From: Candidatus Taylorbacteria bacterium RIFCSPLOWO2_12_FULL_43_20
Lineage (GTDB): Bacteria > Patescibacteriota > Minisyncoccia > Phycocordibacterales > HO2-43-120
DNA: 52,042 nucleotides
NCBI GenBank assembly: GCA_001821295.1
Contig: MHSK01000011.1
Location: 1-52,042, forward strand
Direction: 5' to 3'
Shown here piece by piece: positions 3,592-51,131 of the stretch. Position 1 is the stretch's first letter, and every line of letters begins with the position of its first letter. The position numbers were made by a program, and so were the translations under genes. The notes below the pieces were generated by a model that was not told the DNA's origin, ran no database searches, and saw only the letters and a list, made by a program, of their open reading frames with translations.

Positions 3592-5034
3592 ATGGAGGAA
3601 CAAAAAAATACATTTTATATAACGACACCAATATTTTATCCTAATGCCAATCTGCACATGGGCCACGCGTATACGACTACTTTGGCGGATATTATTGCTC
3701 GGTATCATCGGCTGAGAGACGTAGAAACATATCTTTTGGTGGGAGCTGACGAAAATACGGAAAAAGTCGTAAGAGCGGCCGAAGCGGCCGGCAAGGGAAC
3801 CCAAGAATATTTAGACGGCATTGTCCGCGGGTTTCAAGATTTGTTCAGTAAGCTGGAGATTGACTACGACCAATTTATTCGCACTTCCGATAATGGTGTC
3901 CACTGGCCGGGAGCGATGGAGATATGGCGAAGGATGGTGCGATCGGGCGATATTGAAAAAAGGACTTATAGCGGACTTTACTGCGTTGGGCACGAATCTT
4001 TCATAACAGAAAAAGATTTGGTTGACGGCAAATGCCCCGAACACAATGAAGAACCGCAAAAAGTCAGCGAGGAAAATTATTTCTTCAAATTATCAAAGTA
4101 TTCAAAAAGAATAGAGGAAAAAATAAAAAGCGACGAGCTTGCGATTATACCGCATGCTAGAAAAAATGAAATTCTGGCGCTCATAGCAAGGGGGCTTGAG
4201 GATATAAGTTTTTCTAGGCCGGCGGAAAAAATGTCCGTAGGGATCCCCGTGCCCGATGATCCCACTCAGAAAATATATGTCTGGGGGGATGCTCTGGCGA
4301 ACTATGCGAGCGCTCTGGGTTTCGGCCGTGAGAATGACGAACTGTTTAAAAAATTCTGGCCGGCTGATTTACATGTGATAGGGAAGGATATTTTAAGGTT
4401 CCACGCGGCGATCTGGCCCGGCATGCTAATGTCCGCAGGTTTACCACTCCCAAAATCCATACTAGTGCATGGTTTTATTACCTCGGGCGGAAAAAAAATG
4501 TCCAAATCTCTTGGTAATGTTATAGATCCTAACGCGCTTATTGCCGAGTACGGAGCCGAGGCGGTCAGGTATTATTTGGCTCGGCATATATCTCCTTTTG
4601 AGGATGGAGATATGACGCAGGAATCTTTCAAGGGTGCTTACAACGCCGATCTCGCCAACGGGTTGGGGAATCTGGTGAGCCGGGTGTTGAAAATGGCTGT
4701 GACAAACGGGGTATCAATTGAAGAAGAAAAGTTAAACCAAAATATAAGTTCTGCTCCGGAGCTCGCGCATATGGAATCGTATGAGGTCAATAAAGCGGGG
4801 TCTGCCATATGGGGAAGGATACAAAAAATGGATCAGTATATTCAAGTAGAGCAGCCGTTTAAAAAAATTAAAGCTGATTTGGAGGGAGCGAAAAAAGACA
4901 TTAGATATTTACTTGCAGAATTGTATGCGGTAGTAGCTTTACTTCGACCTATTATGCCCGAAACGTCTAAAACCATATTGGATCTCGTCAGAAAAAACAA
5001 AATGCCGGAGAGTCCGCTTTTTCCCCGAAAGTAA
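3592..5034 (+). CDS. metG: Methionyl-tRNA synthetase (short form, no C-terminal tRNA-binding domain)
   Basis: Class I HIGH-type motif PNANLHMGH and KMSKS motif KMSKSLGN, with MetRS-like anticodon-binding tail. Confidence 0.9.
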   Translation: MEEQKNTFYITTPIFYPNANLHMGHAYTTTLADIIARYHRLRDVETYLLVGADENTEKVVRAAEAAGKGTQEYLDGIVRGFQDLFSKLEIDYDQFIRTSDNGVHWPGAMEIWRRMVRSGDIEKRTYSGLYCVGHESFITEKDLVDGKCPEHNEEPQKVSEENYFFKLSKYSKRIEEKIKSDELAIIPHARKNEILALIARGLEDISFSRPAEKMSVGIPVPDDPTQKIYVWGDALANYASALGFGRENDELFKKFWPADLHVIGKDILRFHAAIWPGMLMSAGLPLPKSILVHGFITSGGKKMSKSLGNVIDPNALIAEYGAEAVRYYLARHISPFEDGDMTQESFKGAYNADLANGLGNLVSRVLKMAVTNGVSIEEEKLNQNISSAPELAHMESYEVNKAGSAIWGRIQKMDQYIQVEQPFKKIKADLEGAKKDIRYLLAELYAVVALLRPIMPETSKTILDLVRKNKMPESPLFPRK

Positions 5035-5040
5035 TTATGT

Positions 5041-5168
5041 ATTACGAAACTCTTTTCTCGGCAGGGCTTTTGCGGAACACGGGTATTTTTTTGCTAAAAA
5101 ATCCCTATGCTCGCCCGTCAGCTTCCGCAATGTTCCGCAAAAGCCCTGCCTGCGACGAGTTTCGTAAT
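5041..5168 (+). repeat. Family A 128-nt palindromic element, copy A1
   Basis: Termini ATTACGAAACTC/GAGTTTCGTAAT and an internal perfect 20-bp stem GGCAGGGCTTTTGCGGAACA/TGTTCCGCAAAAGCCCTGCC. Near-identical to copies at 14269, 39561 and 41468. Confidence 0.95.
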
Positions 5169-5229
5169 TCAACGCTAGTAAGGACTAATTGCACTGTGGA
5201 TAAGATGACATGGCTAGAAAAAATTGTGG

Positions 5230-5238
5230 TGGTACAAT
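5230..5238 (+). promoter_or_regulatory. Extended -10 promoter (TGgTACAAT), possibly giving a leaderless mRNA for the giant surface protein
   Basis: TGGTACAAT ends 6 nt before the ATG at 5245. No Shine-Dalgarno and no clear -35 were seen. Confidence 0.3.
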
Positions 5239-5244
5239 TAACAC

Positions 5245-8200
5245 ATGCGTAATTTTAGGCGCATCGTCTTGGTGTTCATTTTAGCCGGCGCGTTTGCGGG
5301 GCTAGCGTCACTTTCGTTGCATTTGGACAAAAAATATAATAGTTTTTCACAAAAAAACCGTCATATGGCGGCTGTTTCTGGTTCGGGTTCGGGACTCATC
5401 GGTCATTGGGCATTTGATGATGCAAGCGGAACAAACGCTTCCGATTCTTCCGGCAACGGCAGGACGGCTTCTCTTCAGGGCGGAGCGGGATGGTCGACAG
5501 GCAAAATAGTAGGAGCTGTATCTTTGGACGGAACAAATGATTATGTTGATACCGGCTATTCAAATTCGCTCGGATCATTTACCGCGGCGGTTTGGTATAA
5601 GAGTACCAATACTCAAACTTCGGAAATCGCCAGAGCGGTAGCGGGAAACATGACATCTGGCGGGGGGTTCTGGCTTATACCCGAGTGGGCCAATCCTTCT
5701 CCCATCTTCGCATACGGATTCATAAGCACGTCCGCCGACAATGCGGCCTTGCTTTTTTCACAATCGGAAGGATTCAGGTCCGGCTGGCATCATTTGGCCA
5801 TCACATATGACGGTTCATCAGCAAAGATCTATCAGGACGGTTCATTGAGAGAAATCAGATCAGTGTCTCTCGGAAGCGTTCCGTCCGGCACTTCCATAAA
5901 GTTCGGCCAGCGAGGAGACGGCTTATATTATTTCAAAGGATTGTTGGATGACGCTCGCTTTTACAATCGCGCTCTTTCTGCGAGCGAGATAAGCGAATTA
6001 TATAATTATACTGGGGACGTTTCGGTAAATACGGTTGACCCGGACAATGATATTCCGATACAAACAAACTCTGTCATTCCTGCCGAATCGCCGGCTGGAG
6101 ATATTACCGACACTGTTATCACACCCGATGCCACCAAATATTCATTAAAGATAAATAAAACGGGAAACGGGACGGTAAACGGAAGCGGGGTCTCATGCAC
6201 GTTGAGTATTTGCAATACAACCCACAATGAAGGCACATCGCTTACACTCACCTCCTCGCCTTCCTCAGGATATTCTTTCAGCGGATGGAGTGGCGCATGC
6301 TCGGGTACGGGATCTTGTGGTTTGACTATGAATTCTGATAAGACGGTAAATGTTGTTTTTACAAAAAATCCGACGCCGGAAATAGTAATAGAGCAGGAAC
6401 CGGAAACACCACCTTCGCAAGTGGTTAATCCCGTAGTTCCGGTGGAAGTAGGCAGTCAGGAAGGAACCGAATGGTACGTCTCTCCTTCGGGAAGCGTTTC
6501 AGGAGAAGGTACCGCGAGCAAACCTTGGGACTTGAGAACAGCCCTTTGTGGAGGCAGACCTTTTTATCTCGTTGACGGTGTCTGTTCTTCAAATCATGTA
6601 GTCAAGGTCAAACCGGGAGATACGATCTGGCTTCGCGGCGGCAATTATACAGAAGGAGTATCAGGAGAATGGCAGAACAATTACAGCATTATCAGTACTC
6701 TAACCGGATCTTCGGGGAAATACATCACCGTAAGGCAGTATCCCGGCGAAAGGGCCGCTTTGAACATACGCACTTTGCTTGTTAAAGGATCATACGGGAT
6801 TTACAGGGATTTTGAAATTTCCGGTTCTGATCCGGATCACGTCTCGGCGTATGACGGCTCTCTGCCTAATGACGTTTTGGGCCACAGCGCCATTTCATCA
6901 AGCGGGCCTTACAATAAGTTTATCAATCTTGTTCTGCATGACGCGACCGGATTCGGAATAGGCATGAGTGCTTCATCGTACGGTTCGGAAGCATATGGAA
7001 ATATAGTCTATTACAACGGCTGGCAGGGAACCGACAGGGGCCACGGACATGGATTTTATGTGCAAAACACCGGAGCCGCGCAAATATTAGAGGACAATAT
7101 CGTTTTTGGAAATTATCAGAACGGAATTCAGATGAGAGGTGCCGGCAATTCTTCCCGATTCAACTTTATCGGCAATACGAGCTTCAATAACGGAATTTTG
7201 AGCAGAAACAGGGAAGGCAACAATATTACGGCCGCCGACGACACACAGAGGATAGACGTGATCGGAAACATGACTTACAACAGCTACTATGCGAGTGATA
7301 GGACCGGCACGGTCAAATTCGGCGCGACAACGCTCGATATGAGAAACAATTATTTTCCGGAATACACATGGATCGCCAATTCTCCGAGTTCGCTGACTTT
7401 CACCGATAATTTCTTGTCCGGACCGACCACGCTGGTGTATTTCCCGAGCACAATGGCAAATGCCAATTGGAACAGGAATACATATTATTCGGAACAGTTA
7501 AGGTATACGCCGTTCAACGGGTCTTATTTCGATCAATGGAAGTCTTCCACCGGCTATGATCAGAATTCGGTATATACGATCGGAAAGCCTACAGGTGTGA
7601 AAGTATTCGTAAAGCCCAACAAGTATGAACAAGGCAGAGCGAATATCACCGTTTACAATTGGGCGAAAAATTCATCCGTGGCCGTTAATGTCAGCTCAGT
7701 ATTGCCGATTGGGACAAGATACGAAGTCCGCAACGCCCAAGATTTCTACGGTTCTCCTGTTTTGAGCGGCACATACCAGGGCGGAAATTTAAATCTGCCG
7801 ATGTCGGGTCTTTCTTTGGCTCAGCCGAAAGTGTTCACTGGTCAAAATGTAGAATTAACCGGTCCGGAATTCAATGTTTTCGTTCTTTTGCCAGTGGGGT
7901 GGAGCGATCAGGTTCAAAATATTGTCGTAACTCCCGTATTATCTCCCAGCGGTGGAGAGTTCACGGGGACACAGGCAGTTTCAATCTCCAGCGCTACGGA
8001 TGGCGCTACTATTTACTATACATTAGACGGGAGTATACCCACGGAACAATCCGCAAGATATACGAGTCCCATAAATATCAGCCAATACTCGGTTATAAGG
8101 GCAAAGGCGTTCAAGAGCGGCATGACATCTAGTGGAACGGTGACTGCAATATTTACCAAATCAATTGGAGATACAAACAATTCAGCGCCGGTTGTAAATT

Positions 8201-14242: not shown

Positions 14243-14268
14243 AGTTCCCGTATTTCTTTATCACTGCA

Positions 14269-14396
14269 ATTACGAAACTCTTTTCTCGGCAGGGCTTTTG
14301 CGGAACACGGGTATTTTTTTGCTAAAAAATCCCTATGCTCGCCCGTCGGCTTGCGCAATGTTCCGCAAAAGCCCTGCCTTCGACGAGTTTCGTAAT
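14269..14396 (+). repeat. Family A 128-nt palindromic element, copy A2
   Basis: Near-identical to A1 and A4; begins 26 nt after the fusA stop. Confidence 0.95.
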
Positions 14397-14480
14397 TTAC
14401 AATCGATTAGGGTATACACTGTCGGCCATTCCTCCTTTTCTAAATTCACGATATTTTATATTTATGTTATCCTCTTAATT

Positions 14481-15506
14481 ATGGGAACGAAGAAAAAGTC
14501 AGGAAAAAAAAACGCAATTAAAAACAGTGATAGGGCAAATACAAATACGGCCGGGTGCCTCTCATACGATAACTGCAGAGTTTGCCGGCTTATGCGTTCA
14601 GTTAAAGCGAAAGAAAAAGATAAAATTATTCAAGAGGTTGTAAAAAAGGGCGCAAAGGACGGTTGTCGTAGAGTCATAAGTAAAATACGCGAGGAATGGT
14701 GGACTTCCGAGTTAAGGCGTTTGGTGGAAAGAGCCAGTTTGAATGAAAGGAAACATCCCAAGGAAATAGCCGGGTTTAAAATACCCGTATGGTGGGAATG
14801 TGGCTGGCGACGCAAGAGATGTTATAGACCGAATTGCCCGATTTGTCCGAATACTGAAAAAATAATGGGGGTATTGGGTCTTGATGACGAGACGGGTAAA
14901 AAAACGGATGATATTAACAAAATAGACGGAGAAATTATCAAAAATGAAGACAAGTTACCGGACACCCTTTTTGATCCGAAAGACATTGGTTTGTCTTTTG
15001 ATAAAGATAAAATATTGGATATTTCAGAAGATCTGATTGATGATATTGGCTTTGACGAGAACTATGACGATATATATGAGGAAGAGGAAGAGTTAGAAAA
15101 GGATAAGAACCCCGAGTCCTTTTCGCTTTATAGGAAAACTGCCGCTTGGACGGAGAAAAATAGAAGTCTTGTCAAGAAGAACATAGGAAAAAAACAAATT
15201 GACGATGAGGAGATTTTGGACATTATGTGGTATGGAAACATTTTACCCATAAAGACTTATATGCAGATGTGTTTTAAAAAAGATATGTTCGTCCATTTCA
15301 ATTCCGGAGGAGCGGCAGCTGATAATCCGGACGAGGTCAATTACAGGTATAACGGCTATGTACTCAAGGAGGTGTTGTTGATTTTGGAAGCAGCGCTGGA
15401 AAAAAAGATTAAGACAGGAAAAGAAAAAGAAAAATCGCATTACTTGTCTCAACTTAAGGAATTGCGCGTTTTCAAGCCGAGTATTTTGTCGTTGTGCCCG
15501 CGATAA
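14481..15506 (+). CDS. Hypothetical Cys-rich / highly acidic protein (341 aa)
   Basis: The ORF-track start at 14298 lies inside repeat A2, so the ATG at 14481 (MGTKKKSGKK) is preferred. Cys clusters CLSYDNCRVC and CYRPNCPIC, a central D/E-rich tract, and no recognised family. Confidence 0.55.
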   Translation: MGTKKKSGKKNAIKNSDRANTNTAGCLSYDNCRVCRLMRSVKAKEKDKIIQEVVKKGAKDGCRRVISKIREEWWTSELRRLVERASLNERKHPKEIAGFKIPVWWECGWRRKRCYRPNCPICPNTEKIMGVLGLDDETGKKTDDINKIDGEIIKNEDKLPDTLFDPKDIGLSFDKDKILDISEDLIDDIGFDENYDDIYEEEEELEKDKNPESFSLYRKTAAWTEKNRSLVKKNIGKKQIDDEEILDIMWYGNILPIKTYMQMCFKKDMFVHFNSGGAAADNPDEVNYRYNGYVLKEVLLILEAALEKKIKTGKEKEKSHYLSQLKELRVFKPSILSLCPR

Positions 15507-16618: not shown

Positions 16619-16897
16619 ATGCCTACAAAAGCAAAAAATAACACAAATATCATCGGTTTTAAAGAGCTTCGAGAAAACGCGGGTAAATACATCTCTGCCG
16701 TAGAAAAAGGCAAGGTTTTTACGGTTGTGCGTCGTTCAAGGCCCATATTTAAAATGATACCTGTCGACGAGTGGGGGGATGAAGGATTATGGACCAAAGT
16801 TGTCGATTTCACTAAGTTTAGAAAAGGTGGCGTGAAGGCCGAAGAAGTTTTAGCAAGTTTGAAGCGTTTGGAGGATTATAGCCCATCCACCATCTAA
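16619..16897 (+). CDS. Phd/YefM-type antitoxin-like protein
   Basis: The N-terminus IGFKELRENAGKYISAVEKGKVFTVVRRSRPIFKMIP matches the Phd/YefM fold pattern. Confidence 0.65.
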   Translation: MPTKAKNNTNIIGFKELRENAGKYISAVEKGKVFTVVRRSRPIFKMIPVDEWGDEGLWTKVVDFTKFRKGGVKAEEVLASLKRLEDYSPSTI

Positions 16898-17044: not shown

Positions 17045-17335
17045 ATGGTTCAATTGCTTCACCATCCTGAGGAACTCGAAGGAGATCGTGGATGGGCTCT
17101 TATGAATAAGCTCGACAAATTTTTACTTAAACTGGACAAAAAAACTCGGGAAGCAATAAAGGAGATCATGACCTTGATTATTTTAGGCGATCTTTCGGGT
17201 TTAGACATAAAAAAATTGAAAGGTTTTGAAACTAGGTATAGGGTGAGAGTAGGCAGGATACGAGTAGTTTTTGATCAGACTGATTATGGAAATTTAATCC
17301 AAGACGTTTCTTTTCGCGACAATAATACGTATTAG
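17045..17335 (+). CDS. RelE/ParE-family toxin-like protein
   Basis: KLDKKTREAIKE...KKLKGFETRYRVRVGRIRVVFDQ resembles the RelE/StbE pattern (KLDKK..., YRIRVGDYRIIY). Alternative start at 17102. Confidence 0.6.
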   Translation: MVQLLHHPEELEGDRGWALMNKLDKFLLKLDKKTREAIKEIMTLIILGDLSGLDIKKLKGFETRYRVRVGRIRVVFDQTDYGNLIQDVSFRDNNTY

Positions 17336-17434: not shown

Positions 17435-17623
17435 GTTATGTACCGTAATTCGGAGCTTTTTGTTTAATTCTAGTACCATAAACAATTCGGACTGTTATTG
17501 ACTCGATTGCTATACTATCAGGACTTATTTTTTGAAACCGGAGAAAATCAGGATATGCGAATCCAGACTCCGAAAATTCATGCTTAAGTTGTGGTGTGTG
17601 TCGCGTGTCAATGTTTGAACGTT

Positions 17624-17750
17624 TATAGAACTTACGCAGTCGGCGCATTTCTTTGTTGCAAGCTCCGTTTGCACCCGCAATGTATAAAACATACATTTTG
17701 GTCGCAATCCTCGCTTGCGCCTCAAACTGCATCAAAATGCGTAAGTCCAA
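17624..17750 (+). repeat. Family B ~125-nt TIR-bounded element, copy B1
   Basis: ACTTACGCAGTCGGCGCATTTCT...CTGCATC..ATGCGTAAGTCC; aligns along its whole length with the copies at 18984, 24344 and 38721. Confidence 0.9.
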
Positions 17751-17787
17751 GTTTAATAATTTTTTAATAATTTAATAATAAAAAATC

Positions 17788-18981
17788 ATGGCAGAAGCAT
17801 TTGATCGATCAAAACCGCATGTCAACGTCGGAACTATTGGCCACGTTGATCACGGCAAGACAACATTAACAGCGGCAATTCTCAGCGTTTTAAGTAGGTC
17901 GGGAAAGCAGGTTAAGCTGAAAGGAGTTGACCAGATAGACTCCGCGCCGGAAGAAAAAGCTCGAGGCATCACGATCTCTTTGTCGCACAACGAATACTCC
18001 AGTGACACAAGGCACTACGCTCACATTGACGCTCCGGGTCATGCCGACTATATAAAAAACATGATTACAGGCGCGGCTCAGATGGACGGAGCCGTTTTGG
18101 TGGTGGCGGCCACGGACGGGGTTATGCCGCAGACTCGCGAGCATATTCTTCTTGCCAAGCAGGTGGGAGTGCCTAAAATCGTGGTCTTTCTCAATAAATG
18201 TGATATGGTTGCCGAACAGGACTTGATAGACCTTGTGGAAGAAGAGGTTAGAGAATTGCTTGATAAGTATGAGTTTGACGGAAAAAACGCTCCGGTTATC
18301 AGGGGATCGGCTCTAAAGGCGCTTGAAGCGTCGGGAGTGGATGATGAATGGTCCAAAAAAGTTTTGGATCTCGTAAATACGCTGGACACCTACATTCCTA
18401 TACCGGTAAGAGAAACCGATAAGCCGTTTCTGATGCCTGTTGAAGATATATTTTCTATTGAAGGACGAGGAACGGTGGTAACGGGAAGAATTGAAAGAGG
18501 AATAGTCAAAGTGGGAGAAGATGTGGAAATAATAGGCATTAAACCGACGATCAAAACAACGGTTACCGGCATTGAAATGTTCAATAAATCTTTATCTGAG
18601 GGCATGGCGGGAGACAACGCCGGTATTCTTCTTAGAGGATCAAAGAAAGAAGATATTCACAGAGGACAAGTATTGGCAAAGCCGGGATCGGTTACTCCGC
18701 ACACGGATTTTGAAAGCGAGGTCTATGTTTTGAAAAAGGAAGAAGGGGGGAGGCATACACCGTTCTTTTCTGGTTACAAGCCGCAATTTTACATCAGGAC
18801 TACGGACGTTACCGGAGAAGTTACGCTGGTGGAAGGCACGGAAATGATTATGCCCGGAGATACGACAAAATTTACGGTTAAGCTGGTTGCGCCTGTAGCG
18901 CTTGAGGAGAAACAGAGATTTGCCATTCGCGAGGGTGGTAAAACAGTGGGCGCCGGAGTAGTGACGAAAATAACCAAATAG
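17788..18981 (+). CDS. tuf: Elongation factor Tu
   Basis: [39 protein letters not shown]; 397 aa. Confidence 0.97.
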
Positions 18982-18983
18982 AA

Positions 18984-19109
18984 TATGATTTACGCAGTCG
19001 GCGCATTTCTTCTATGCAAGCCCCGTTTGCTCCCGCAATGTATAAGCTACATTCTGGTCGCAATCCTCGCTTGCGCCTCGAACTGCATCCAACTGCGTAA
19101 GTCCTATAG
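18984..19109 (+). repeat. Family B element, copy B2
   Basis: Starts 2 nt after the tuf stop; ends ...AACTGCGTAAGTCCTATAG. Confidence 0.9.
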
Positions 19110-23832: not shown

Positions 23833-23901
23833 CAAAAATAAGCGCGAAATACTAAATACGAAGCACGAAAAATGAATTCATAATCCAAAAATTAAAAAAA
23901 T

Positions 23902-24321: not shown

Positions 24322-24343
24322 ACAAGTTTGCGTTATTGAGTAG

Positions 24344-24472
24344 TATATGACTTACGCAGTCGGCGCATTTCTTCGTTGCAAGCTCCGTTTGCTCCCGCAA
24401 TGTATAAGGATACATTTTGGTCGCAATCCTCGCTCGCGCCTCGAACTGCATCCAACTGCGTAAGCCCTATAG
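24344..24472 (+). repeat. Family B element, copy B3 (between rplP and rpmC)
   Basis: TATATGACTTACGCAGTCGGCGCATTTCTTCGTTGCAAGC...CAACTGCGTAAGCCCTATAG. Confidence 0.9.
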
Positions 24473-24495
24473 CATTAGGAATTACTTCCACAGCC

Positions 24496-25352: not shown

Positions 25353-25379
25353 GAAAAATAACACGACACCAATATACGA

Positions 25380-25420
25380 CTCCGACGCTTTGGTCGGAGC
25401 CCCGACCGAAGCGTCGGGGA
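25380..25420. repeat. Family D long hairpin (CCGACGCTTTGGTCGG-AGCC-CCGACCGAAGCGTCGG)
   Basis: Same hairpin as at 42836-42875 and 46782-46821. Lies between rplN and rplX. Confidence 0.9.
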
Positions 25421-25518
25421 TGAAGACGAATTACACTAATATATTGATGGATTTAAACAATCTACCCAATTCTTGTCATTCGTTTTAATTCGTAATCAGT
25501 GTCTAGGAAAAATCAAAC

Positions 25519-34502: not shown

Positions 34503-34646
34503 GTAACCGCTCACACCTTGAAGGGTGTCATTCCCGCGAAGGCGGGAATCTAGACCGCATTTGAACCTGGATTCCCGTCTTCGCGGGAATGACAGAAGGA
34601 GAAAAATGTTACAATTAGCGGGTTACTCGGCCTTGTGAGCGGTTAA
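34503..34646. repeat. Composite nested palindrome containing two family C hairpins
   Basis: Outer arms GTAACCGCTCACA / TGTGAGCGGTTAA enclose GTCATTCCCGCGAAGGCGGGAAT (34527-34549) and ATTCCCGTCTTCGCGGGAATGAC (34571-34593). Confidence 0.85.
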
Positions 34647-38112: not shown

Positions 38113-38718
38113 ATGACACATCTTAAAAAAGAGAGGACGCTAGTGGTTATCAAGCCGGACGGTATTCAAAGGACGCTTGTGGGTGAGATTATACAGCGCT
38201 ATGAACGGATTGGACTGAAACTTATCGCCATTAAGATGCTCGTACCCTCCGAGGATCATGTGGACAAGCATTACAATCTTGACCCTGAGTGGAAGAAAAA
38301 TGTGGGTGAGAAATCAATCAAAGGGTATATAGACAAAGGTCTTGAGCCGCCCTCACAAGATCCAATGGTTATAGGGGATCAAGTTATAAGTGTTCTGAAA
38401 AAATATCTTAGCTCCGGACCGGTCATAGCGATGGTGTGGCAAGGCGCTCACGCGGTTAAAATTGTGAGGAAAATTACGGGAGGTACGGAGCCGCTTTCAT
38501 CGGATGTCGGCACGATTCGGGGGGACTATGTTTTAGATTCTTATCAAATGTCCGATAAGGACGGCAGGGCAATACGCAATCTGATCCATGCCTCAGGATC
38601 TGCAAAAGAAGCAGACGATGAGATCAAGCATTGGTTTGTTGAAGAAGAATTGCTAGATTACAATCTGGTGCAAGACAAAATCCTTTACGATGTAAATCTA
38701 GACGGATTGTTGGAATAG
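38113..38718 (+). CDS. ndk: Nucleoside diphosphate kinase, long form (201 aa)
   Basis: ERTLVVIKPDGIQRTLVGEIIQRYERIGLKLIAIKM, GTIRGDY, and NLIHAS holding the active-site His. A ~40-aa insertion relative to the ~145-aa classical form. Confidence 0.9.
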   Translation: MTHLKKERTLVVIKPDGIQRTLVGEIIQRYERIGLKLIAIKMLVPSEDHVDKHYNLDPEWKKNVGEKSIKGYIDKGLEPPSQDPMVIGDQVISVLKKYLSSGPVIAMVWQGAHAVKIVRKITGGTEPLSSDVGTIRGDYVLDSYQMSDKDGRAIRNLIHASGSAKEADDEIKHWFVEEELLDYNLVQDKILYDVNLDGLLE

Positions 38719-38720
38719 TT

Positions 38721-38847
38721 TAGGAATTACGCAGTCGGCGCATTTCTTCTCTGCAAGCTCCGTTTGCTCCCGCAATGTATAAGGATACATTTTGGTCGCA
38801 ATCCTCGCTTGCGCCTCGAACTGCATCCGACTGCGTAAGTCCTATAG
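38721..38847 (+). repeat. Family B element, copy B4
   Basis: Starts 2 nt after the ndk stop; ends ...GACTGCGTAAGTCCTATAG. Confidence 0.9.
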
Positions 38848-38853
38848 CTGTAT

Positions 38854-39539: not shown

Positions 39540-39560
39540 CACCGTTACTTATGACATTGG

Positions 39561-39688
39561 ATTACTAAACTCGTCGAAGGCAGGGCTTTTGCGGAACATT
39601 GCGCAAGCCGACGGGCGAGCATAGGGATTTTTTAGCAAAAAAATACCCGTGTTCCGCAAAAGCCCTGCCGAGAAAAGAGTTTCGTAAT
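39561..39688 (-). repeat. Family A 128-nt element, copy A3 (inverted orientation)
   Basis: Reverse complement of A1/A2/A4 with a few substitutions. Confidence 0.95.
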
Positions 39689-39715
39689 CCACAATTATGA
39701 ATTAAACAAGATATT

Positions 39716-41105: not shown

Positions 41106-41453
41106 TTACTGATTCACTTTTTTATATATTCTGGAGAAATATTCCGGTTGATCTTCGGCGAGGGATGCCAATATTTTGCGGTCAATAAGAACGTTCTTCT
41201 TTTTGAGCGCGCCCATAAACTTACTGTAAGACATGCCTTCTTTGGCCAAAGCGGCGCTAATCTTAACATTCCACAATCTTCTGAAGTCACCTTTTTTGTC
41301 TCGTCTATGAGCAAAGGCGTAAGTGCCGGCGTGAAAAATGGCTTCTTGGGCTTGTTTCTCCTTTTTACTTCTGCCGAAGCGGTAACCTTTTACCTTCCTC
41401 AGTGTATTTCTTCTGGTTTTGAGAGCGTTAACTCCTTTCTTTACTCTTGTCAT
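41106..41453 (-). CDS. rplT: 50S ribosomal protein L20
   Basis: MTRVKKGVNALKTRRNTLRKVKGYRFGRSK...FRRLWNVKISAA signature. Confidence 0.95.
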   Translation of the reverse strand: MTRVKKGVNALKTRRNTLRKVKGYRFGRSKKEKQAQEAIFHAGTYAFAHRRDKKGDFRRLWNVKISAALAKEGMSYSKFMGALKKKNVLIDRKILASLAEDQPEYFSRIYKKVNQ

Positions 41454-41467
41454 ATTTATTACTTTGA

Positions 41468-41595
41468 ATTACGAAACTCTTTTCTCGGCAGGGCTTTTGC
41501 GGAACACGGGTATTTTTTTGCTAAAAAATCCCTATGCTCGCCCGTCGGCTTGCGCAATGTTCCGCAAAAGCCCTGCCTTCGACGAGTTTCGTAAT
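41468..41595 (+). repeat. Family A 128-nt element, copy A4 (between rpmI and rplT)
   Basis: Appears identical to A2 by eye. Confidence 0.95.
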
Positions 41596-41667
41596 TCATG
41601 ATTATTAAAAATTAAAATCAGATGGGTATTATTACTATTGCGCGGGTTAGATAAGTTTCGCCATAGG

Positions 41668-41853: not shown

Positions 41854-41953
41854 GCGGTTGGAATTATGCGAAGATGGCGCTGGAATAGCGAAATACGTTT
41901 TTATTCTCCATAGGACTTAGACGTGTTAGTTTATTCGAATCATTCCTCAGTCT

Positions 41954-42024
41954 GTCATTCCCGCGAATGCGGGAATCCAGGGTCTTATCTGCACACTCTG
42001 GATTCCCGCATTCGCGGGAATGAC
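41954..42024. repeat. Family C double palindrome (27-bp perfect arms, 17-nt spacer) between infC and rpmI
   Basis: GTCATTCCCGCGAATGCGGGAATCCAG ... CTGGATTCCCGCATTCGCGGGAATGAC. Confidence 0.9.
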
Positions 42025-42074
42025 ATCAAACGCTTCATTCCTATTTAATTGATAATTAGATTCTGAACAGGCTC

Positions 42075-42584: not shown

Positions 42585-42666
42585 TTGTTTCTGCTGATTT
42601 ATTTTATAATTTTATACGGATATTTGGATTGTTCCTTACTTGATTCCCTTTGTATGTTTTAAAAGT

Positions 42667-42898
42667 GGCACCGCAGGGCGTTCCCCTCTGCCCCTCTTTA
42701 GAGGGGAAGTCCTCGTTCTTACGAGGGATGGGGTGTCTTCTCTCTTCTTCCTTTTCTCCTTTTTGAATTTACAATTTTTTCGGATTTCGTGCTTCGTGCT
42801 TATATAAGGATGGGGTATTCCCCATTCGTATCTATCCCCGACGCTTCGGTCGGGGCTCCGACCGAAGCGTCGGAGTCGTTAAGTGCTATCTACTATAA
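42667..42898 (-). repeat. Family E mosaic element, copy E1 (~230 nt), includes the family D hairpin at 42836-42875
   Basis: Its reverse complement aligns with 46759-47034 apart from a ~36-nt indel. The gene-proximal end lies 82 nt upstream of the infC start. Confidence 0.9.
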
Positions 42899-42939
42899 CA
42901 TAGCTGACAAGATATTTCAACTAATTTTTGTGCAGTTGT

Positions 42940-44394
42940 TCACAAGCTGAGTGAGGACTTGGAGGCGGAGTTTACGGCCGCCTCCTTGAACCATTGAAGA
43001 AGTGATTGCACATCTTTTTCTCTGTCTTTGGATCCCAATACGATAAAAGCCACATTATATTTATCGTTTCCAACTTGAAGTTTGAATACCGAAAGCATTG
43101 TCTCGTTGGCGGCTTGGGTATAGCCGGTTTTACCGCCGACAAAGTCAGAGTCGTCGCTGAATATGTTGAAATTAGTGAACCGGTGCTCGTGCTGGGGGGT
43201 CAGCAACTCTTTTTCAGGCAGGCGTGTAATGGCGAGAATGAATGATTTTTTATTATTAAGGTATTTTGCCATAAGGTACAGGTCATAACCAGTTGATGTA
43301 TTTCCGCTTGAAATGCCGGACGAGTCGGTAAAAGTCGTATCGGTCATTCCGAGCGCCTCTGCTTTTTTGTTCATCAGCGAGATGAATCCGGTTTCCCCAT
43401 AGTAGTAGGAGTACGCCTTGGCCGCGTCGTTGGAAGATTCCATAAGCAGAGGGTATAGCAGATCATTTGCTGTTATTTCTTCTCCCTTCTGCAAATGACC
43501 GCTGTCCCCATGCGTCTCCAATATATAATCGTTGATGGTTATCACTCTATCAAACATGATCGCTTCGTTTGCCACTATGGCCGTCATGAGTTTTGTGATT
43601 GACGCTATGGGGTAAACATTTTTCATGTTTTTTTCCAAAAAAACTTCTCCGGTGTTAATGTCCGCGATTATGAAGGCGTCGGATGTCAGATGGGGAAGCG
43701 GTATGTCTTTAATTCTTATATCCTCGCGTTTGGGATTGCTGTCGTCTTCGGAGCTTTCGTGAACGAAAATAGGGGTGCCATTTTCCACGAACTCAAACAC
43801 TTTTCTCGCGTCTTCAACATCCAGCCGTATGCATCCGCCTGAATAACCGGGGGCTACGGGGGTTCCGTCGGGATAGTATGGCCATCCGTGGATAAAAAAG
43901 TTACCGTAAAATTGCATGCTGTAGGGCATGTACACTTTGCCGACCGAAGAGAAATGAGTGCGGATTTTACTCAGTATTTTATAATCACCGCTCGGTGTTT
44001 CCCAAAAAGATCCCGGCTTGCCCTTGGATAATATCGGAAAAGTCTCTTTTATGCCGCCGTCTTCAAAAAGGATAAGCTTCATGCTATCCAGGTCGGCCGC
44101 GACAAATTTACCCAGTGTGGGAATGTGGTTTTCAATCGTATCAATGGCTATGGTTTTCTGCGGCGTAAAAATTTCTTTCTCTGGCGTTGCCTTGTCTCCA
44201 AGGACAGAAGATGATGATTTCACTTGCGTTGCATCTAACTCAACCATTGGCGATTTTACCTCTTCGCCGGCGGCTTTTGAAATAGTTTTACTCATGTAAA
44301 AACTGATTGAAACCATGCATAAAAAAAAGAGCATGCTCGCCCAAAAAACAATCTCAACCCCGCTTCTTTTCCTGTCGTTATTTTGCGTTCTCAT
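42940..44394 (-). CDS. Membrane-anchored fusion of an L,D-transpeptidase (YkuD) domain and a D-alanyl-D-alanine carboxypeptidase (S11/PBP5-like) domain
   Basis: YkuD catalytic motif IHGWP...GYSGGCIRL. S11 motifs SITK (SxxK), SSN (SxN) and KTGYT (KTG). N-terminal basic stretch plus TM from MRTQNNDRKR (start 44394; tracked ORF start 44457). Confidence 0.85.
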   Translation of the reverse strand: MRTQNNDRKRSGVEIVFWASMLFFLCMVSISFYMSKTISKAAGEEVKSPMVELDATQVKSSSSVLGDKATPEKEIFTPQKTIAIDTIENHIPTLGKFVAADLDSMKLILFEDGGIKETFPILSKGKPGSFWETPSGDYKILSKIRTHFSSVGKVYMPYSMQFYGNFFIHGWPYYPDGTPVAPGYSGGCIRLDVEDARKVFEFVENGTPIFVHESSEDDSNPKREDIRIKDIPLPHLTSDAFIIADINTGEVFLEKNMKNVYPIASITKLMTAIVANEAIMFDRVITINDYILETHGDSGHLQKGEEITANDLLYPLLMESSNDAAKAYSYYYGETGFISLMNKKAEALGMTDTTFTDSSGISSGNTSTGYDLYLMAKYLNNKKSFILAITRLPEKELLTPQHEHRFTNFNIFSDDSDFVGGKTGYTQAANETMLSVFKLQVGNDKYNVAFIVLGSKDREKDVQSLLQWFKEAAVNSASKSSLSL

Positions 44395-44649
44395 CAATGC
44401 GAATAATGATACACGACAATTGGCTATAATGGGAGGAACTATCGCGCTCCAATACATAAAACACGCCAGACGGGTGGCGTGTTTAAAAATCAGAATATCT
44501 ATAGATGTGGGCCCTTCGCTACTGCTCAGGGTCCTACAAAAATATAGTCACTCGCTTCGCTCGTTCATTATTTTTGTGGACATCGACCAAAATACTTGGA
44601 ACCGCTTACAACATTATGTGATGGAGTGGAATCCAGCAGTTGAAGAAGC

Positions 44650-44680
44650 AAAAACCCGCGACCATATTTCAGATCGCGGG
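44650..44680 (-). terminator. Rho-independent terminator (CCCGCGA...TCGCGGG plus T5 on the minus strand)
   Basis: Read directly, about 60 nt downstream of the 149-aa gene. Confidence 0.6.
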
Positions 44681-44740
44681 GAAAGTTTGTGAAAGTTTCG
44701 AGCTTTCGCTCCGGTTTCTTTCAACCGAATGGAGTTACCA

Positions 44741-45190
44741 TTATTTTTTGACCGTGGCCTGGACGTACTCCGTATCGGCGGCTTTCACAGTCACCCCGTA
44801 TGCCAGTTCGACCACATGGTCGTTCTGGTCAGCGAACCGTCGCTGAACGGGGAACCGGAGTTCGATACGAATTAATCCCTCGCCAGCCGGTTGGACCCAC
44901 AGATGTGCCTTGTCGAAGTGAAACTCCGGCGAAAGCGTAAATGGGACACACCAGCGACCGAGGAATTGGCCGAACGGACTCAGTGGGTCAAACCCGAAGG
45001 CCAGGTAGAGGGTGCCGTCCTTATCCGGGATGATTGAAATTTCAGGTCCACTGGCGACCCGGAATCCATCCATGTGGATACGGTTCTTGTGTTCGGCTTT
45101 CAAACCGGACAAGTAACCGTACTTCTCGGCCAGTTGGTCACCCAAAGTCTTGGCCTGTTCATCAGTCAGTTTCGTTGCGGTAGCGTTCAT
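44741..45190 (-). CDS. Hypothetical 149-aa protein, compositionally foreign (high G+C)
   Basis: Intact ORF with its own consensus promoter, an AAAGGAAAAG ribosome-binding region and a terminator. Sampled 60-nt stretches are roughly 55-60% G+C by hand count. No family recognised. Confidence 0.65.
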   Translation of the reverse strand: MNATATKLTDEQAKTLGDQLAEKYGYLSGLKAEHKNRIHMDGFRVASGPEISIIPDKDGTLYLAFGFDPLSPFGQFLGRWCVPFTLSPEFHFDKAHLWVQPAGEGLIRIELRFPVQRRFADQNDHVVELAYGVTVKAADTEYVQATVKK

Positions 45191-45298
45191 GTTCTTTTCC
45201 TTTCAGTTTGTTGAGGTTAAAAGTGACTCTAAAAGCGCAATTTCTGTGCCCTTGGAGTCACTCTCAACCACTTTCTCAATGAGCCTGTAACTGTTACT

Positions 45299-45327
45299 AG
45301 TATAGCATTATACTTCATACTTGTCAA
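45299..45327 (-). promoter_or_regulatory. Consensus promoter TTGACA-N17-TATACT (minus strand)
   Basis: Read directly. Followed by the inverted repeat AGTGACTC...GAGTCACT in the 5' UTR of the 149-aa gene. Confidence 0.5.
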
Positions 45328-45399
45328 GCAAGCAAAAGAAGCATGGAGTGTTGCACTTACTTGTTGAACTCACGAAGGTGAATTTGCACGCTAAACACA

Positions 45400-45651
45400 C
45401 TACACCAAATGTCTTCTGGTAAATGCAAAACCAGACCCATGTTTCAAATATTTTTCAAATTGTAACGCCTTTTTCTTCTCGGAAAAGCAACAATACCAGA
45501 CTAACTTTGTAGGCAATCGATTAGAAGTTGTCTTTACCGATCCTGACAAATGACTTTTCAAACGAGATTTCAAATATTGAGATGAACCAACGTACAAGGA
45601 ATTATCTTTCTGACTTTTTAGTATATAGACAAAGTAAGACATTGCGATCAT
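45400..45651 (-). CDS. Stand-alone GIY-YIG (URI-domain) nuclease-family protein (83 aa)
   Basis: YFVYILKSQKDNSLYVGSSQYLKSRLKSH matches the GIY-(x10)-YVG motif of small GIY-YIG proteins. Confidence 0.8.
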   Translation of the reverse strand: MIAMSYFVYILKSQKDNSLYVGSSQYLKSRLKSHLSGSVKTTSNRLPTKLVWYCCFSEKKKALQFEKYLKHGSGFAFTRRHLV

Positions 45652-45791
45652 TGTATAGAAAATGCCCTGCTCCGCTCCTAATCGGAGCTACGCAGGACAC
45701 TGCTTCGCGTTATTTCATGAAGCAAAATGATTTCTATAAAACAGCAGTGCAGTGCTTGCACTGCGTAGCTCGCGACTAGCGAGCGAAGCAG

Positions 45792-46198
45792 TGGAGATGG
45801 GCGGAATCGAACCGCCGTGCAATTGAATCTCGCGCGCACTTCTACAAAGTTTAGTTTGCTTTCTTTCGCGTGAGCGAATTTAAATCACATGGCTATAAAC
45901 AAACCAAATACCCTGTGATCGGTCCTCAGTTAATTTCAAAATCACATCAAGGCCCTGTGATTTCTATTCCGAAATTATAACACCTACTGCCCGCGTCTCG
46001 GACGTTCGCGGGTAAGGCGCCGCTTAGGCCGAAGCGTAAGCGAAAGCAAAGTCGTTTGCTCCAAAATATGGAGAAGCGACGGATTTTGCTTTTGCGACTA
46101 AGTTATTTACACTTAGTGTTTCTGTCAGATTAAAGAGTTAACAGTGCTCTACTTTGCGTATGCGCGAGGAGCTCAACTGTCTATGCCGGAGCATCCCC
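45792..46198 (-). ncRNA. ssrA: tmRNA (transfer-messenger RNA)
   Basis: 3' end GGCGG-TTCGATT-CCGCC-CATCTCCA forms the T-arm and acceptor strand. 5' GGGGATG pairs with CATCTCC, including the G3:U wobble. Putative tag ORF GCA AAC GAC TTT GCT TTC GCT TAC GCT TCG GCC TAA (ANDFAFAYASA, 46024-46059) has its stop inside hairpin CGCTTA...TAAGCG. CCA is not encoded. Confidence 0.85.
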
Positions 46199-46642
46199 AT
46201 TTTTTTTCAAGGTCCTTCTCATTTCACGTTCCGTGTCTCTCTTTTTCAAATCTTCCCGTTTGTCGTAAAGTTTCTTACCTCTTACGACGGCCAAACGTAC
46301 CTTAATCTTACGCTCTTTATTATACATCAAAAGAGGAATTATTGTCAAACCCTTCTTTTTCTCATATCCCGCTAGTATCGCCATTTCCTTTTTCGTGACG
46401 AGAAGGCGTCTATTCCTCCTTGGCTCATAATCTTTCGGAGTGTTTTTTTCCTGATAGGGAGAGATTAACGCGTTTAGAAGGAACGTCTCGCCGCCTCGCA
46501 CTGTCACGTGCGATCCGATCAGTGATCCTTGTCCCTCTCTAAGCGATTTGACCTCCAAGCCACGGAGCTCTATTCCGGCGTCAAATTCGTGTATTGTCTC
46601 GTAATTAAAGCGGGCTTTTTTGTTGTCTAAAATGACTTGCAT
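46181..46642 (-). CDS. smpB: SsrA-binding protein SmpB
   Basis: LDNKKARFNYETIHEFDAGIELRGLEVKSLR signature and a basic C-terminal tail. Confidence 0.93.
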   Translation of the reverse strand: MQVILDNKKARFNYETIHEFDAGIELRGLEVKSLREGQGSLIGSHVTVRGGETFLLNALISPYQEKNTPKDYEPRRNRRLLVTKKEMAILAGYEKKKGLTIIPLLMYNKERKIKVRLAVVRGKKLYDKREDLKKRDTEREMRRTLKKNGDAPA

Positions 46643-46758
46643 GCAGAAATCATAGCAGAATAGCGAGAAAAAGTAATGGATTCAGCCGCTGATTTTTTAC
46701 GGTTCAGCGTGACGTGATATACTGTACTACGAGAGCAAGAGGTGTAAGTGGCTGCGGT

Positions 46759-47034
46759 TCATAGTAGATACCGCTTAACGACTCCGACGCTTCGGTCGGG
46801 GCTCCGACCGAAGCGTCGGGGATAGATACGAATGGGGAACACCCCATCCTTATATAAGCACGAAGCACCAAATAACAAATTACAAAAAATTGTAAATTCA
46901 AAAAGGAGAAAAGGAAGAAGAGAGAAGACACCCCATCCCTCGTACCCCTACGCTCGAAGCGAGCTTCGGCGGCACACAGTAAGAACGAGGACTTCCCCTC
47001 TAAAGAGGGGCAGAGGGGAACGTCCTGCGGTGCC
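46759..47034 (+). repeat. Family E mosaic element, copy E2 (~275 nt), includes the family D hairpin at 46782-46821
   Basis: Aligns with the reverse complement of 42667-42898. The gene-proximal end lies 81 nt upstream of the ftsH start. Confidence 0.9.
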
Positions 47035-47115
47035 GCTATTAAATTTAACGATCCCTTTCCTTGCACTTTTTAGAAATTAATGTTGAATACATTAAATAAC
47101 GGATAATATCACAGT

Positions 47116-49068: not shown

Positions 49069-49159
49069 CTATAGGACTTACGCGTCTATTGTCATTCCCG
49101 CCTTCGCGGGAATGACAATAGAGAATGGTTTGGAAAAAGCCAGTATGCGTAAGTTCTAG
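49069..49159. repeat. Mosaic element: family B-type termini enclosing a family C hairpin
   Basis: CTATAGGACTTACGCG ... TGCGTAAGTTCTAG flank CTATTGTCATTCCCGCCTTCGCGGGAATGACAATAG. Lies between the convergent ftsH and trmB-like genes. Confidence 0.8.
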
Positions 49160-51008: not shown

Positions 51009-51086
51009 GCGCGAAATAGGGATTTGCACTGAAGTATGTGTTTTGGCTCATTCAAACCATCCCCATCTGTTAGTCCAGCGCTCTCT

Positions 51087-51112
51087 GTCATTCCCGCTTT
51101 CGCGGGAATGAC
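51087..51112. repeat. Family C hairpin (GTCATTCCCGC-TTTC-GCGGGAATGAC)
   Basis: Lies between the convergent kinase and HAD genes. The trailing ATCAAACGC is shared with the copy at 42002-42024. Confidence 0.9.
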
Positions 51113-51131
51113 ATCAAACGCACAAAACTTA

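Follow-up and report, generated by a model that had tools for sequence, protein, structure and literature searches.

Inverted copies of a nested hairpin mosaic ahead of infC and ftsH in a Candidatus Taylorbacteria genome

The stretch of DNA analyzed here (the window) comprises 52,042 nt of contig MHSK01000011.1 from Candidatus Taylorbacteria bacterium RIFCSPLOWO2_12_FULL_43_20 (assembly GCA_001821295.1) and is mainly a ribosomal-protein supercluster. The homologues of its IF3 and FtsH proteins place it in Parcubacteria/Paceibacterota, close to Candidatus Taylorbacteria. Within it, one intergenic element, which we call family E, occurs twice in inverted orientation, once ahead of infC and once ahead of ftsH. 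Our favored reading, which we consider probable, is that family E is built as a mosaic of small palindromic modules nested in one another and constitutes selfish or neutral DNA, not a regulator of infC and ftsH. The window repeats of this family are assembled from shared hairpin cassettes that recur in other lineages of the Candidate Phyla Radiation (CPR, or Patescibacteria) and are at times translated within essential enzymes. CPR genomes are ~1 Mb in size and usually described as streamlined.

One of the cassettes, hairpin D, was searched in public genomes, and the last hairpin of E was searched in metagenome contigs. Further related loci, referred to below by L numbers, were gathered via exact-protein look-ups.

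The inverted pair and its modules

A repeat search and a MAFFT alignment showed that copy A (42658-42896, minus strand) and copy B (46761-47043, plus strand) are one element present twice; 227 positions are identical, 12 are mismatched, and 44 columns contain gaps. The gaps consist of a 7-nt indel in the AT-rich middle and an insertion at 46944-46980 in copy B only; exact-match runs between the copies measure 26, 36, 28, 58, and 44 nt. That the two sites hold the same inverted sequence had been recognized in a first-pass annotation of this DNA, and this proved true, with a length of 37 nt for the insertion. The same annotation ended both copies at a GGTGCC motif (42667 and 47034), and the similarity extends ~9 nt past these ends. 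As a whole composite, copy A is 239 nt long and lies 44 nt past the stop codon of a gene for a YkuD/S11 penicillin-binding protein (PBP) fusion; copy B, of 283 nt, lies within the divergent smpB/ftsH spacer. Measured from GGTGCC, the distance to the TTG start codon of infC (42584) is 82 nt in copy A and that to the ATG of ftsH (47116) is 81 nt in copy B, precisely as annotated. On the gene-facing strand, the predicted fold reaches -91 kcal/mol for copy A (z = -5.9 versus shuffles) and -118 kcal/mol for copy B (z = -6.9).

From its gene-distal end, each copy opens with a conserved 5′ end, T5, which is ATAGTAGATAGCACTTAACGA in copy A (42876-42896, minus), where it overlaps a promoter-like TTGAAA-17-TATAGT (with TG) at 42920-42892, and ATAGTAGATACCGCTTAACGA in copy B (46761-46781, plus); the same end is found on elements of L010, L015, L016, L021, and L028. 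Hairpin D follows as an unstranded 36-nt palindrome (42838-42873 in copy A, 46784-46819 in copy B). Its stem had been given as 18 bp, a length reached only by counting a flanking C-G pair and a T-G wobble; the perfect stem is 16 bp. The 4-nt loop reads AGCC in element orientation in copy A and GGCT in copy B, where D is flipped relative to the element, with the result that the 36 nt of D are identical on the plus strand in both inverted copies. The other three annotated hairpins (ATGGGG-AAYA-CCCCAT, CCTCGT-AAGA-ACGAGG, and CCCCTC-TAAA-GAGGGG) are likewise all present in the sequence. The first of them, hairpin H2, is ATGGGG-AATA-CCCCAT in copy A (42810-42825, minus) and ATGGGG-AACA-CCCCAT in copy B (46832-46847, plus).

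The middle of the element is formed by cassette M, an AT- and purine-rich segment that includes AAGCACGAAGCAC and AAAAAATTGTAAATTCAAAAAGGAG and measures 73 nt in copy A (42737-42809, minus), 7 nt less than the 80 nt of copy B (46848-46927, plus); related pieces exist in L021, L028, L016, and L026. Module P comes next. In copy A it spans 54 nt (42683-42736, minus) and consists of ACACCCCATC, the hairpins CCTCGT-AAGA-ACGAGG and CCCCTC-TAAA-GAGGGG, and then CAGAGGGG. In copy B (46928-47018, plus) it is split by module N (46944-46980, plus), which is the 37-nt insertion and is nested in the loop of the first hairpin of P (ACCCCTACGCTCGAAGCGAGCTTCGGCGGCACACAGT); homologues of N were found in L015, L016, L021, L026, and L012. 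The conserved 3′ end, T3, is GGGGAACGCCCTGCGGTGCC plus an AT-rich tail in copy A (42658-42686, minus) and GGGGAACGTCCTGCGGTGCC plus an AT-rich tail in copy B (47015-47043, plus).

A core with exchangeable cassettes

The organization of E becomes apparent from elements that share its ends. The T5 and T3 ends recur with quite different interiors in L010, L015, L016, L021, and L028, and also on minimal cores of ~70 nt. Such a core has the 5′ end ATAGTAGATACCGCTTAACGA and the 3′ end GGGGAACGCCCTGCGGTGCC followed by TTAAAATTTAC; the D unit takes the place of its AAAGCGCAC between two ACGA repeats. Between these ends, E carries the D unit, H2, M, and P, with N in addition in copy B, and homologues of N, M, P, and D stand in other combinations in L012, L015, L016, L021, L026, and L028. 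E is thus a ~70-nt core whose interior was replaced or filled by cassettes. When the window was scanned with a profile of four minimal cores, the 3′ part (positions 37-70) matched both copies at E = 5e-5, the 5′ part (positions 2-21) reached the threshold for copy B only (E = 0.04), and the middle (positions 30-47) gave E ~0.7-0.8.

The cassettes also occur singly. The partial copy annotated between rplN and rplX is real: it is a solitary D unit (ACGACT, hairpin D, GGGGATGAAGACGAAT) at 25365-25431 on the plus strand, in sense, and 90% identical to the D unit within the L015 mosaic. Overall, the hairpin D motif has 6 matches in the window versus 0.32 expected. Fragments similar to the middle of E had also been reported near 23850. 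As a match within the window this is weak (13 nt at 23838-23880, equaled in 3 of 100 shuffles), but AAGCGCGAAAT is common to 23838-23880 and to the beginning of cassette M in L028.

A third E copy was found in L026, a locus with 99.8% identity to the window along 6.9 kb, beyond which its sequence leads elsewhere. This copy is 84% identical with the same cassette order and lies in sense between an M50 protease gene and proS, its GGTGCC standing 74 nt ahead of the proS ATG. Compared with copies A and B, its hairpins are conserved and its M linker is divergent. In the proS-mreB spacer of the same locus lies another mosaic, whose M-like piece abuts the mreB ATG. At least three sites in the genome, ahead of infC, ftsH, and proS, have hence received the whole composite in one piece, and the copies later diverged through the nesting of N, an indel, and gene conversion.

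Outside this genome, in a related Parcubacteria contig, L010 and L016 hold an E-type element between atpE and atpF, 68 nt ahead of atpF, and L015 and L021 hold a 297-nt E-type mosaic plus two minimal cores after intrinsic terminators, between convergent genes. The cassettes are common to other Parcubacteria, and hairpin D also occurs in Saccharibacteria, Nomurabacteria, and Wolfebacteria genomes. A scan of viral contigs for D and P gave no match. Of the words sampled from the window sequence, 92-98% are present in groundwater and soil metagenome runs. Logan contigs from eight DNA runs showed many different flanks, module-swapped variants, and modules covered in 12- to 65-fold excess, at a depth that pools several community genomes; for hairpin D, with 3 copies in 52 kb, the likewise pooled depth was ~65-fold that of the flanks.

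Within the AT-rich group of genomes to which the window belongs, all 12 of the 12 mosaics, cores, or modules between same-strand genes are in sense; the isolated P modules in the GC-richer genomes L012 and L013 are both antisense. The distances from GGTGCC to the next start codon are 82, 81, 74, 68, 53, and 681 nt. A spacing of ~80 nt, which the first-pass annotation had suggested checking in further copies, holds only loosely.

In other CPR genomes, the same cassettes are translated as parts of genes. In L012 (6243-7898), a gene for an RNase J-like enzyme is a single 551-aa open reading frame (ORF) that holds a ~310-nt P/N-type chain in frame, amounting to ~95 extra aa; its counterpart in L023 (3341-4876, minus; 511 aa) has a shorter chain at the same site (~45 extra aa), while orthologues elsewhere measure 459-463 aa, and those of the window, L035, and L036 lack an insert. 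Similarly, guaA of L014 (4663-6396, minus; 577 aa) carries two in-frame module P inserts and guaA of L019, at its 3′ end, carries one. In rplC (encoding L3) of the Nomurabacteria locus L002 (332-970), 12 extra codons correspond exactly to the 36-nt hairpin D, which also lies inside long open frames of L003 and L007. Frame-keeping insertion at sites that are empty in orthologues thus holds for P and D elsewhere; both window copies of E are intergenic.

Could E instead be selected as RNA? We consider it improbable that the core or the whole element encodes a small RNA in many copies, or that an RNA-binding protein or an RNase uses it as a platform for binding or processing. Strict sense orientation, the retention of hairpins beside a diverging M linker in the third copy, and the conservation of cassettes across CPR lineages all speak for such a function, as do compensatory changes in several stems. 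The last hairpin exists as CCCCTC/GAGGGG, CTCCCC/GGGGAG, CCTCCCTT/AAGGAGG, and CCCCCTT/AAGGGGG, the first P hairpin as CCTCGT/ACGAGG, GCCTCG/CGAGGC, and CCCTCGG/CCGAGGG, and hairpin D with TTC..GAA or TTT..AAA; this covariation was judged by inspection, and a MAFFT alignment of P modules put the stems out of register. But no terminator follows the elements, module content varies freely among copies, and the cassettes that would form the RNA are translated in frame within enzymes. In addition, RNAalifold gave the minimal core only a weak consensus fold of -4 kcal/mol with one covarying pair. Against Rfam 15, only the transfer-messenger RNA (tmRNA) reached a gathering score; a permissive E-value scan found nothing credible on E, the best hit being P15 with 21 bits versus a gathering score of 70.

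With the favored reading of E as selfish or neutral DNA, the elements would be carried on mRNAs in sense. Copy A would be part of the tail of the PBP transcript, of a long infC leader, or of both, and copy B part of a long ftsH leader if transcription began from a promoter-like site at 46696-46723. The hairpins, GC-rich in a genome that is AT-rich, would then function as structures in the RNA and might influence stability, processing, or pausing, and antisense insertions would either be selected away or never be made. The inverted arrangement would be a by-product of two independent insertions beside oppositely oriented genes. The copies may interact by homologous recombination in the form of gene conversion, without the block between them being a switch.

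Several observations weigh against this reading. No transposase, target-site duplication, or within-species pair of empty and filled alleles was found, and we infer mobility from distribution. By-eye comparison of the flanks of five full elements revealed no shared direct repeat, nor did these elements have strong terminal inverted repeats; copy B has ATAG-N5-ACCGC versus GCGGT-N4-CTAT, matching at 9 of 14 positions, the repeats of copy A are weaker, and in the minimal core L015:3143-3211 GTAGATGCCGC pairs with GCGGCACTAC. Neither the window nor the gene tables of the related loci examined contain a gene for a RAYT (Y1 HUH transposase), and no autonomous insertion sequence (IS) with E ends was seen in these loci. 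The depth-based estimate of copy number mixes several community genomes. Purely neutral junk would not be expected to keep strictly to the sense orientation or, in 5 of 6 cases, to stand 53-82 nt ahead of a start codon; these features could point to a role as RNA or as promoter. A -10-like TATAGT or CATAGT stands in the 5′ end of 7 of 11 copies, and good promoter matches in the two spacers were confined to sequence immediately upstream of each window copy, which fits a leader or promoter role.

Leader, promoter, and recombination

Because of the sense bias and the loose 53- to 82-nt spacing, a promoter or leader role is still the foremost alternative to the favored reading. For infC and ftsH, the first-pass annotation had proposed a shared 5′ leader or promoter module. 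The geometry behind this proposal stands, and a long leader is possible, but a dedicated shared leader is contradicted by six relatives without the element and by other genes that carry copies. Among the nearest relatives retrieved, neither E nor its core is present in the infC upstream spacers of L035, L036, and L037 (128, 212, and 92 nt; IF3 83, 80, and 76% identical) or in the ftsH upstream spacers of L038, L039, and L040 (174, 89, and 605 nt; FtsH 78-79% identical). On the strength of these E-free loci, a conserved leader was rejected. A leader for translation and quality-control genes is not supported either, with E-type elements also standing before proS and atpF and between convergent genes, another mosaic before mreB, and cassettes in coding sequences. 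Since the L035 spacer between the PBP gene and infC carries other hairpin modules, it appears to be a permissive site that is colonized by different elements. Coregulation of infC and ftsH should not be read from the likeness of their upstream regions.

In its more specific form, the rival explanation regards E as a portable promoter-plus-leader cassette, in which the -10 box of T5 (TATAGT) would direct a start inside T5 and the structured leader would tune infC, ftsH, and proS. We regard this as possible though unlikely. In the two spacers, a consensus scan gave its only good sigma-70-like matches just upstream of each copy, at 42920-42892 (overlapping T5) and at 46696-46723, for which reason a long 5′ leader is possible. 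In relatives, infC promoters (TGCTATAGT, TGCTACTCT, and TGCTAGTGT) lie 24-31 nt ahead of the start codon, and the TTGAAA-17-TATAGT site of copy A, CTATGTTATAGT, is similar to them. For copy B, the candidate promoter is TTTACG-16-TGATATACT, 38 nt upstream of the copy, and the scan found no consensus promoter in either of the 81- to 82-nt spacers downstream of E. Several L015 elements directly follow an intrinsic terminator (TTTTT-ATAGTAGA), and the very stable predicted folds of copies A and B, the sense orientation in 12 of 12 cases, and the distance to the next start codon would also suit such a cassette.

Apart from being missing from the same spacers in the six relatives, however, the element has a -35 box in copy A only, and the third copy (GATAGC) as well as some cores lack the -10-like box. 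Full elements between convergent genes in L015 and L021 have nothing to drive. The weak fold of the minimal core and the lack of an Rfam family match are equally unfavorable to a structured leader. Moreover, relatives have ftsH -10 boxes 9-10 nt ahead of the ATG, and the window has TAATAT 6 nt ahead of it, which makes a proximal promoter downstream of E also plausible.

Extended -10 boxes (TGnTAnnnT) were noted in the relatives at L036:9955-10000, L037:3390-3427, L035:9945-10000, L039:4975-5000, and L038:2120-2150. To judge from sequence, the placement of the -10 boxes in these relatives points to 5′ leaders that are very short or missing. Most start codons of the window genome have no Shine-Dalgarno sequence.

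Turning to the DNA between the two copies, the first-pass annotation was right that they exactly bracket a block from the PBP gene to smpB (42897-46760, minus), and its gene identities were confirmed by family matches. All five genes are on the minus strand: a fusion of YkuD and Peptidase_S11 PBP domains (42940-44457), a 149-aa ORF without a Pfam match (44741-45190), a GIY-YIG gene (45400-45651), the tmRNA gene ssrA (45789-46198; 104.7 bits), and smpB (46181-46642). At the 3′ end of smpB, 18 nt are shared with the tmRNA gene. Within smpB, ~120 nt upstream of the tmRNA 5′ end, there is a perfect TTGACA-18-TATAAT (46348-46319), and the predicted tag peptide is long, with 28 aa (VNNLVAKAKSVASPYFGANDFAFAYASA). 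The small stand-alone GIY-YIG gene adjoins ssrA in the window; another such gene (4156-4395) lies upstream of ftsH in L040.

Homologous recombination between the inverted copies had been predicted to invert this block. As a switch, or as frequent structural variation of the 3.9-kb segment, we judge this to be very improbable. The two inverted copies share 95% identity and contain exact matches as long as 58 nt, the D loop is flipped between them, and they do seem to recombine: in L033 (4128-4314), copy A contains within cassette M a central stretch of ~60 nt of the copy-B type between copy-A markers, which, as far as sequence can tell, indicates gene conversion between the inverted copies or else an assembly chimera. 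Nevertheless, all 10 places with the exact IF3 protein, from several assemblies and two assemblers, are collinear with the window. L025, L029, and L031 span both copies in window order, and seven other assemblies span copy A only. This evidence on orientation comes from assembled contigs, with Logan contigs breaking at repeats and a rare inversion falling below contig resolution. Relatives without E have the same arrangement, smpB-ssrA being co-oriented with infC in L037 and smpB being divergent from ftsH in L039, and we therefore take the present orientation of the block as ancestral. No site-specific recombinase is encoded in or beside the block. Besides, an inversion would leave the infC and ftsH promoters unmoved because the gene-proximal ends of both copies stay put.

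Those relatives also bear on a further alternative, in which the tmRNA-smpB-PBP block would have been imported by a composite transposon or genomic island terminated by the two copies. The exact bracketing of five genes by inverted repeats, and a GIY-YIG nuclease gene among them, might recall such a structure, which we nonetheless consider hardly credible. The elements point outward, further single copies exist elsewhere, and the block genes are essential single-copy housekeeping genes. A transposon or island was rejected on account of the same gene adjacencies in E-free relatives, namely, the PBP gene next to infC (L035), smpB-ssrA near infC (L037), and smpB divergent from ftsH (L039). The block consists of native genes and is not cargo of the repeats.

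Likeness to known repeats and further repeats of the window

Among known systems, repetitive extragenic palindromic (REP) sequences and bacterial interspersed mosaic elements (BIMEs) resemble E as short GC-rich palindromes that combine with other motifs in mosaic clusters, occupy transcribed spacers, have many copies, and evolve in concert. REPs are imperfect palindromes of ~20-40 nt with more than 100 copies per genome; hairpin D has 36 nt and 3 copies in the 52 kb of the window. REPs bear a GTAG head, and the E core likewise has GTAG beside a small hairpin. REPs are described as abundant and BIMEs as composites of REPs, with the same REP in alternating orientation and at regular spacing (PMC2817692). 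The hairpins of E, in contrast, all differ in sequence and keep one fixed order and orientation, and its cassettes are nested in a core with defined ends and are strictly in sense. Unlike the strictly extragenic REPs and BIMEs, D and P cassettes elsewhere occur in frame in rplC, guaA, the RNase J-like gene, and other ORFs. Nor was a RAYT transposase seen around E in the window or in the examined loci.

The BOX elements of Streptococcus pneumoniae (boxA-boxB-boxC) have conserved end modules, variable internal modules, and stable predicted RNA folds and are often close to gene starts. As a modular intergenic repeat with conserved ends and an interior that varies in number and kind of modules, E is similar; the two are, however, unrelated in sequence. 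The modules of BOX are of three types and keep a fixed order, whereas the cassettes of E are of at least six types, show nested insertions, and are also met on their own.

Rickettsia palindromic elements (RPEs) are found as in-frame insertions in unrelated housekeeping genes, which are not destroyed by them (PMC10969869). The E family shares with them small palindromes in a reduced genome and, for P and D, in-frame locations in rplC, guaA, and the RNase J-like gene. It differs from these ~150-bp elements in the size of its modules (54 nt for P and 36 nt for D), in the intergenic location of the window copies, and in the tandem chaining and nesting of the CPR cassettes. Bacterial MITEs (miniature transposable elements with inverted repeats), such as Correia, ERIC, and RU-1/2/3, are noncoding, hairpin-folding sequences of 50-400 bp that are intergenic, cotranscribed, and occasionally intragenic (PMC10969869; PMC2759123). 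E matches them in size, absence of coding capacity, predicted hairpins, and intergenic site but has poor terminal inverted repeats (~9 of 14), no target-site duplication, and no known parent IS.

With respect to expression signals, E differs from a cis-regulatory leader or riboswitch in that it is not kept at orthologous positions (infC in L035-L037, ftsH in L038-L040) and matches no RNA family. Putative mobile promoters, that is, identical promoter regions upstream of unrelated genes, have reportedly been described by Matus-Garcia et al. in 2012. E is comparable in being the same sequence upstream of co-oriented unrelated genes and in having a -10-like box at its 5′ end; unlike mobile promoters, its promoter role is predicted only, some copies face convergent genes, and the -10-like box is not in all of them. 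What sets E apart from BIMEs, BOX, MITEs, and RPEs is the combination of heterogeneous nested cassettes, strict sense orientation, sharing across CPR lineages, and tolerance within genes. Literature searches on palindromic, REP, or MITE elements of CPR bacteria found no description of such elements in CPR.

More speculatively, and in our estimate rather doubtful, the cassettes (D, P, N, M, and the core) could be CPR-wide miniature structured elements of an undescribed kind, which would spread within and between Patescibacteria genomes by a transcription-coupled or RNA mechanism, nest in each other's loops, be tolerated in frame in essential genes, and be co-opted as portable promoters or leaders. 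A transcription-coupled or RNA-based spread would explain the strict sense orientation.

Including E, the window contains at least four repeat families in 16 repeat-covered intervals, all of them intergenic and together making up ~2 kb of the 52 kb. One family of ~150 nt is 87-99% identical and occurs in both orientations (5032-5172, 14268-14397, 39557-39711, and 41445-41608). One of its copies sits in the rpmI-rplT spacer and abuts the rplT start codon, and the family creates spurious ORFs, e.g., 5037-5252 and the N terminus of 14298-15506. A second family of ~136 nt, 80-97% identical, is found beside tuf, after rplP, and after ndk (17619-17753, 18977-19109, 24338-24473, and 38713-38848). A third consists of 28-nt hairpins (TGTCATTCCCGC-N4-GCGGGAATGACA), sometimes in inverted pairs (700-727, 34526-34594, 41953-42025, 49090-49117, and 51086-51113); a related hairpin exists in the PBP-infC spacer of L035.

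If such repeats are general, annotation would be affected by spurious ORFs, inflated protein lengths, and contigs broken or chimeric at repeats. This would bear on the assembly of CPR metagenome-assembled genomes, as well as on the evolution of expression signals and protein insertions in ultrasmall genomes. Two loci that are otherwise >99.7% identical to the window, L026 (beyond 7632) and L028 (beyond 2735), continue into different genes, and their switch points are window repeats, namely, the ~150-nt copy at 39557-39711 and a hairpin pair at 41943-42033. These switches are either repeat-mediated strain rearrangements or chimeric assemblies.

A further observation concerns the region between the str-operon genes and tuf, where a Phd/YefM-type antitoxin match (16619-16897; 27.8 bits, below the Pfam gathering score of 29.8, E = 2e-6) is followed by a 96-aa ORF without a family (17045-17335).

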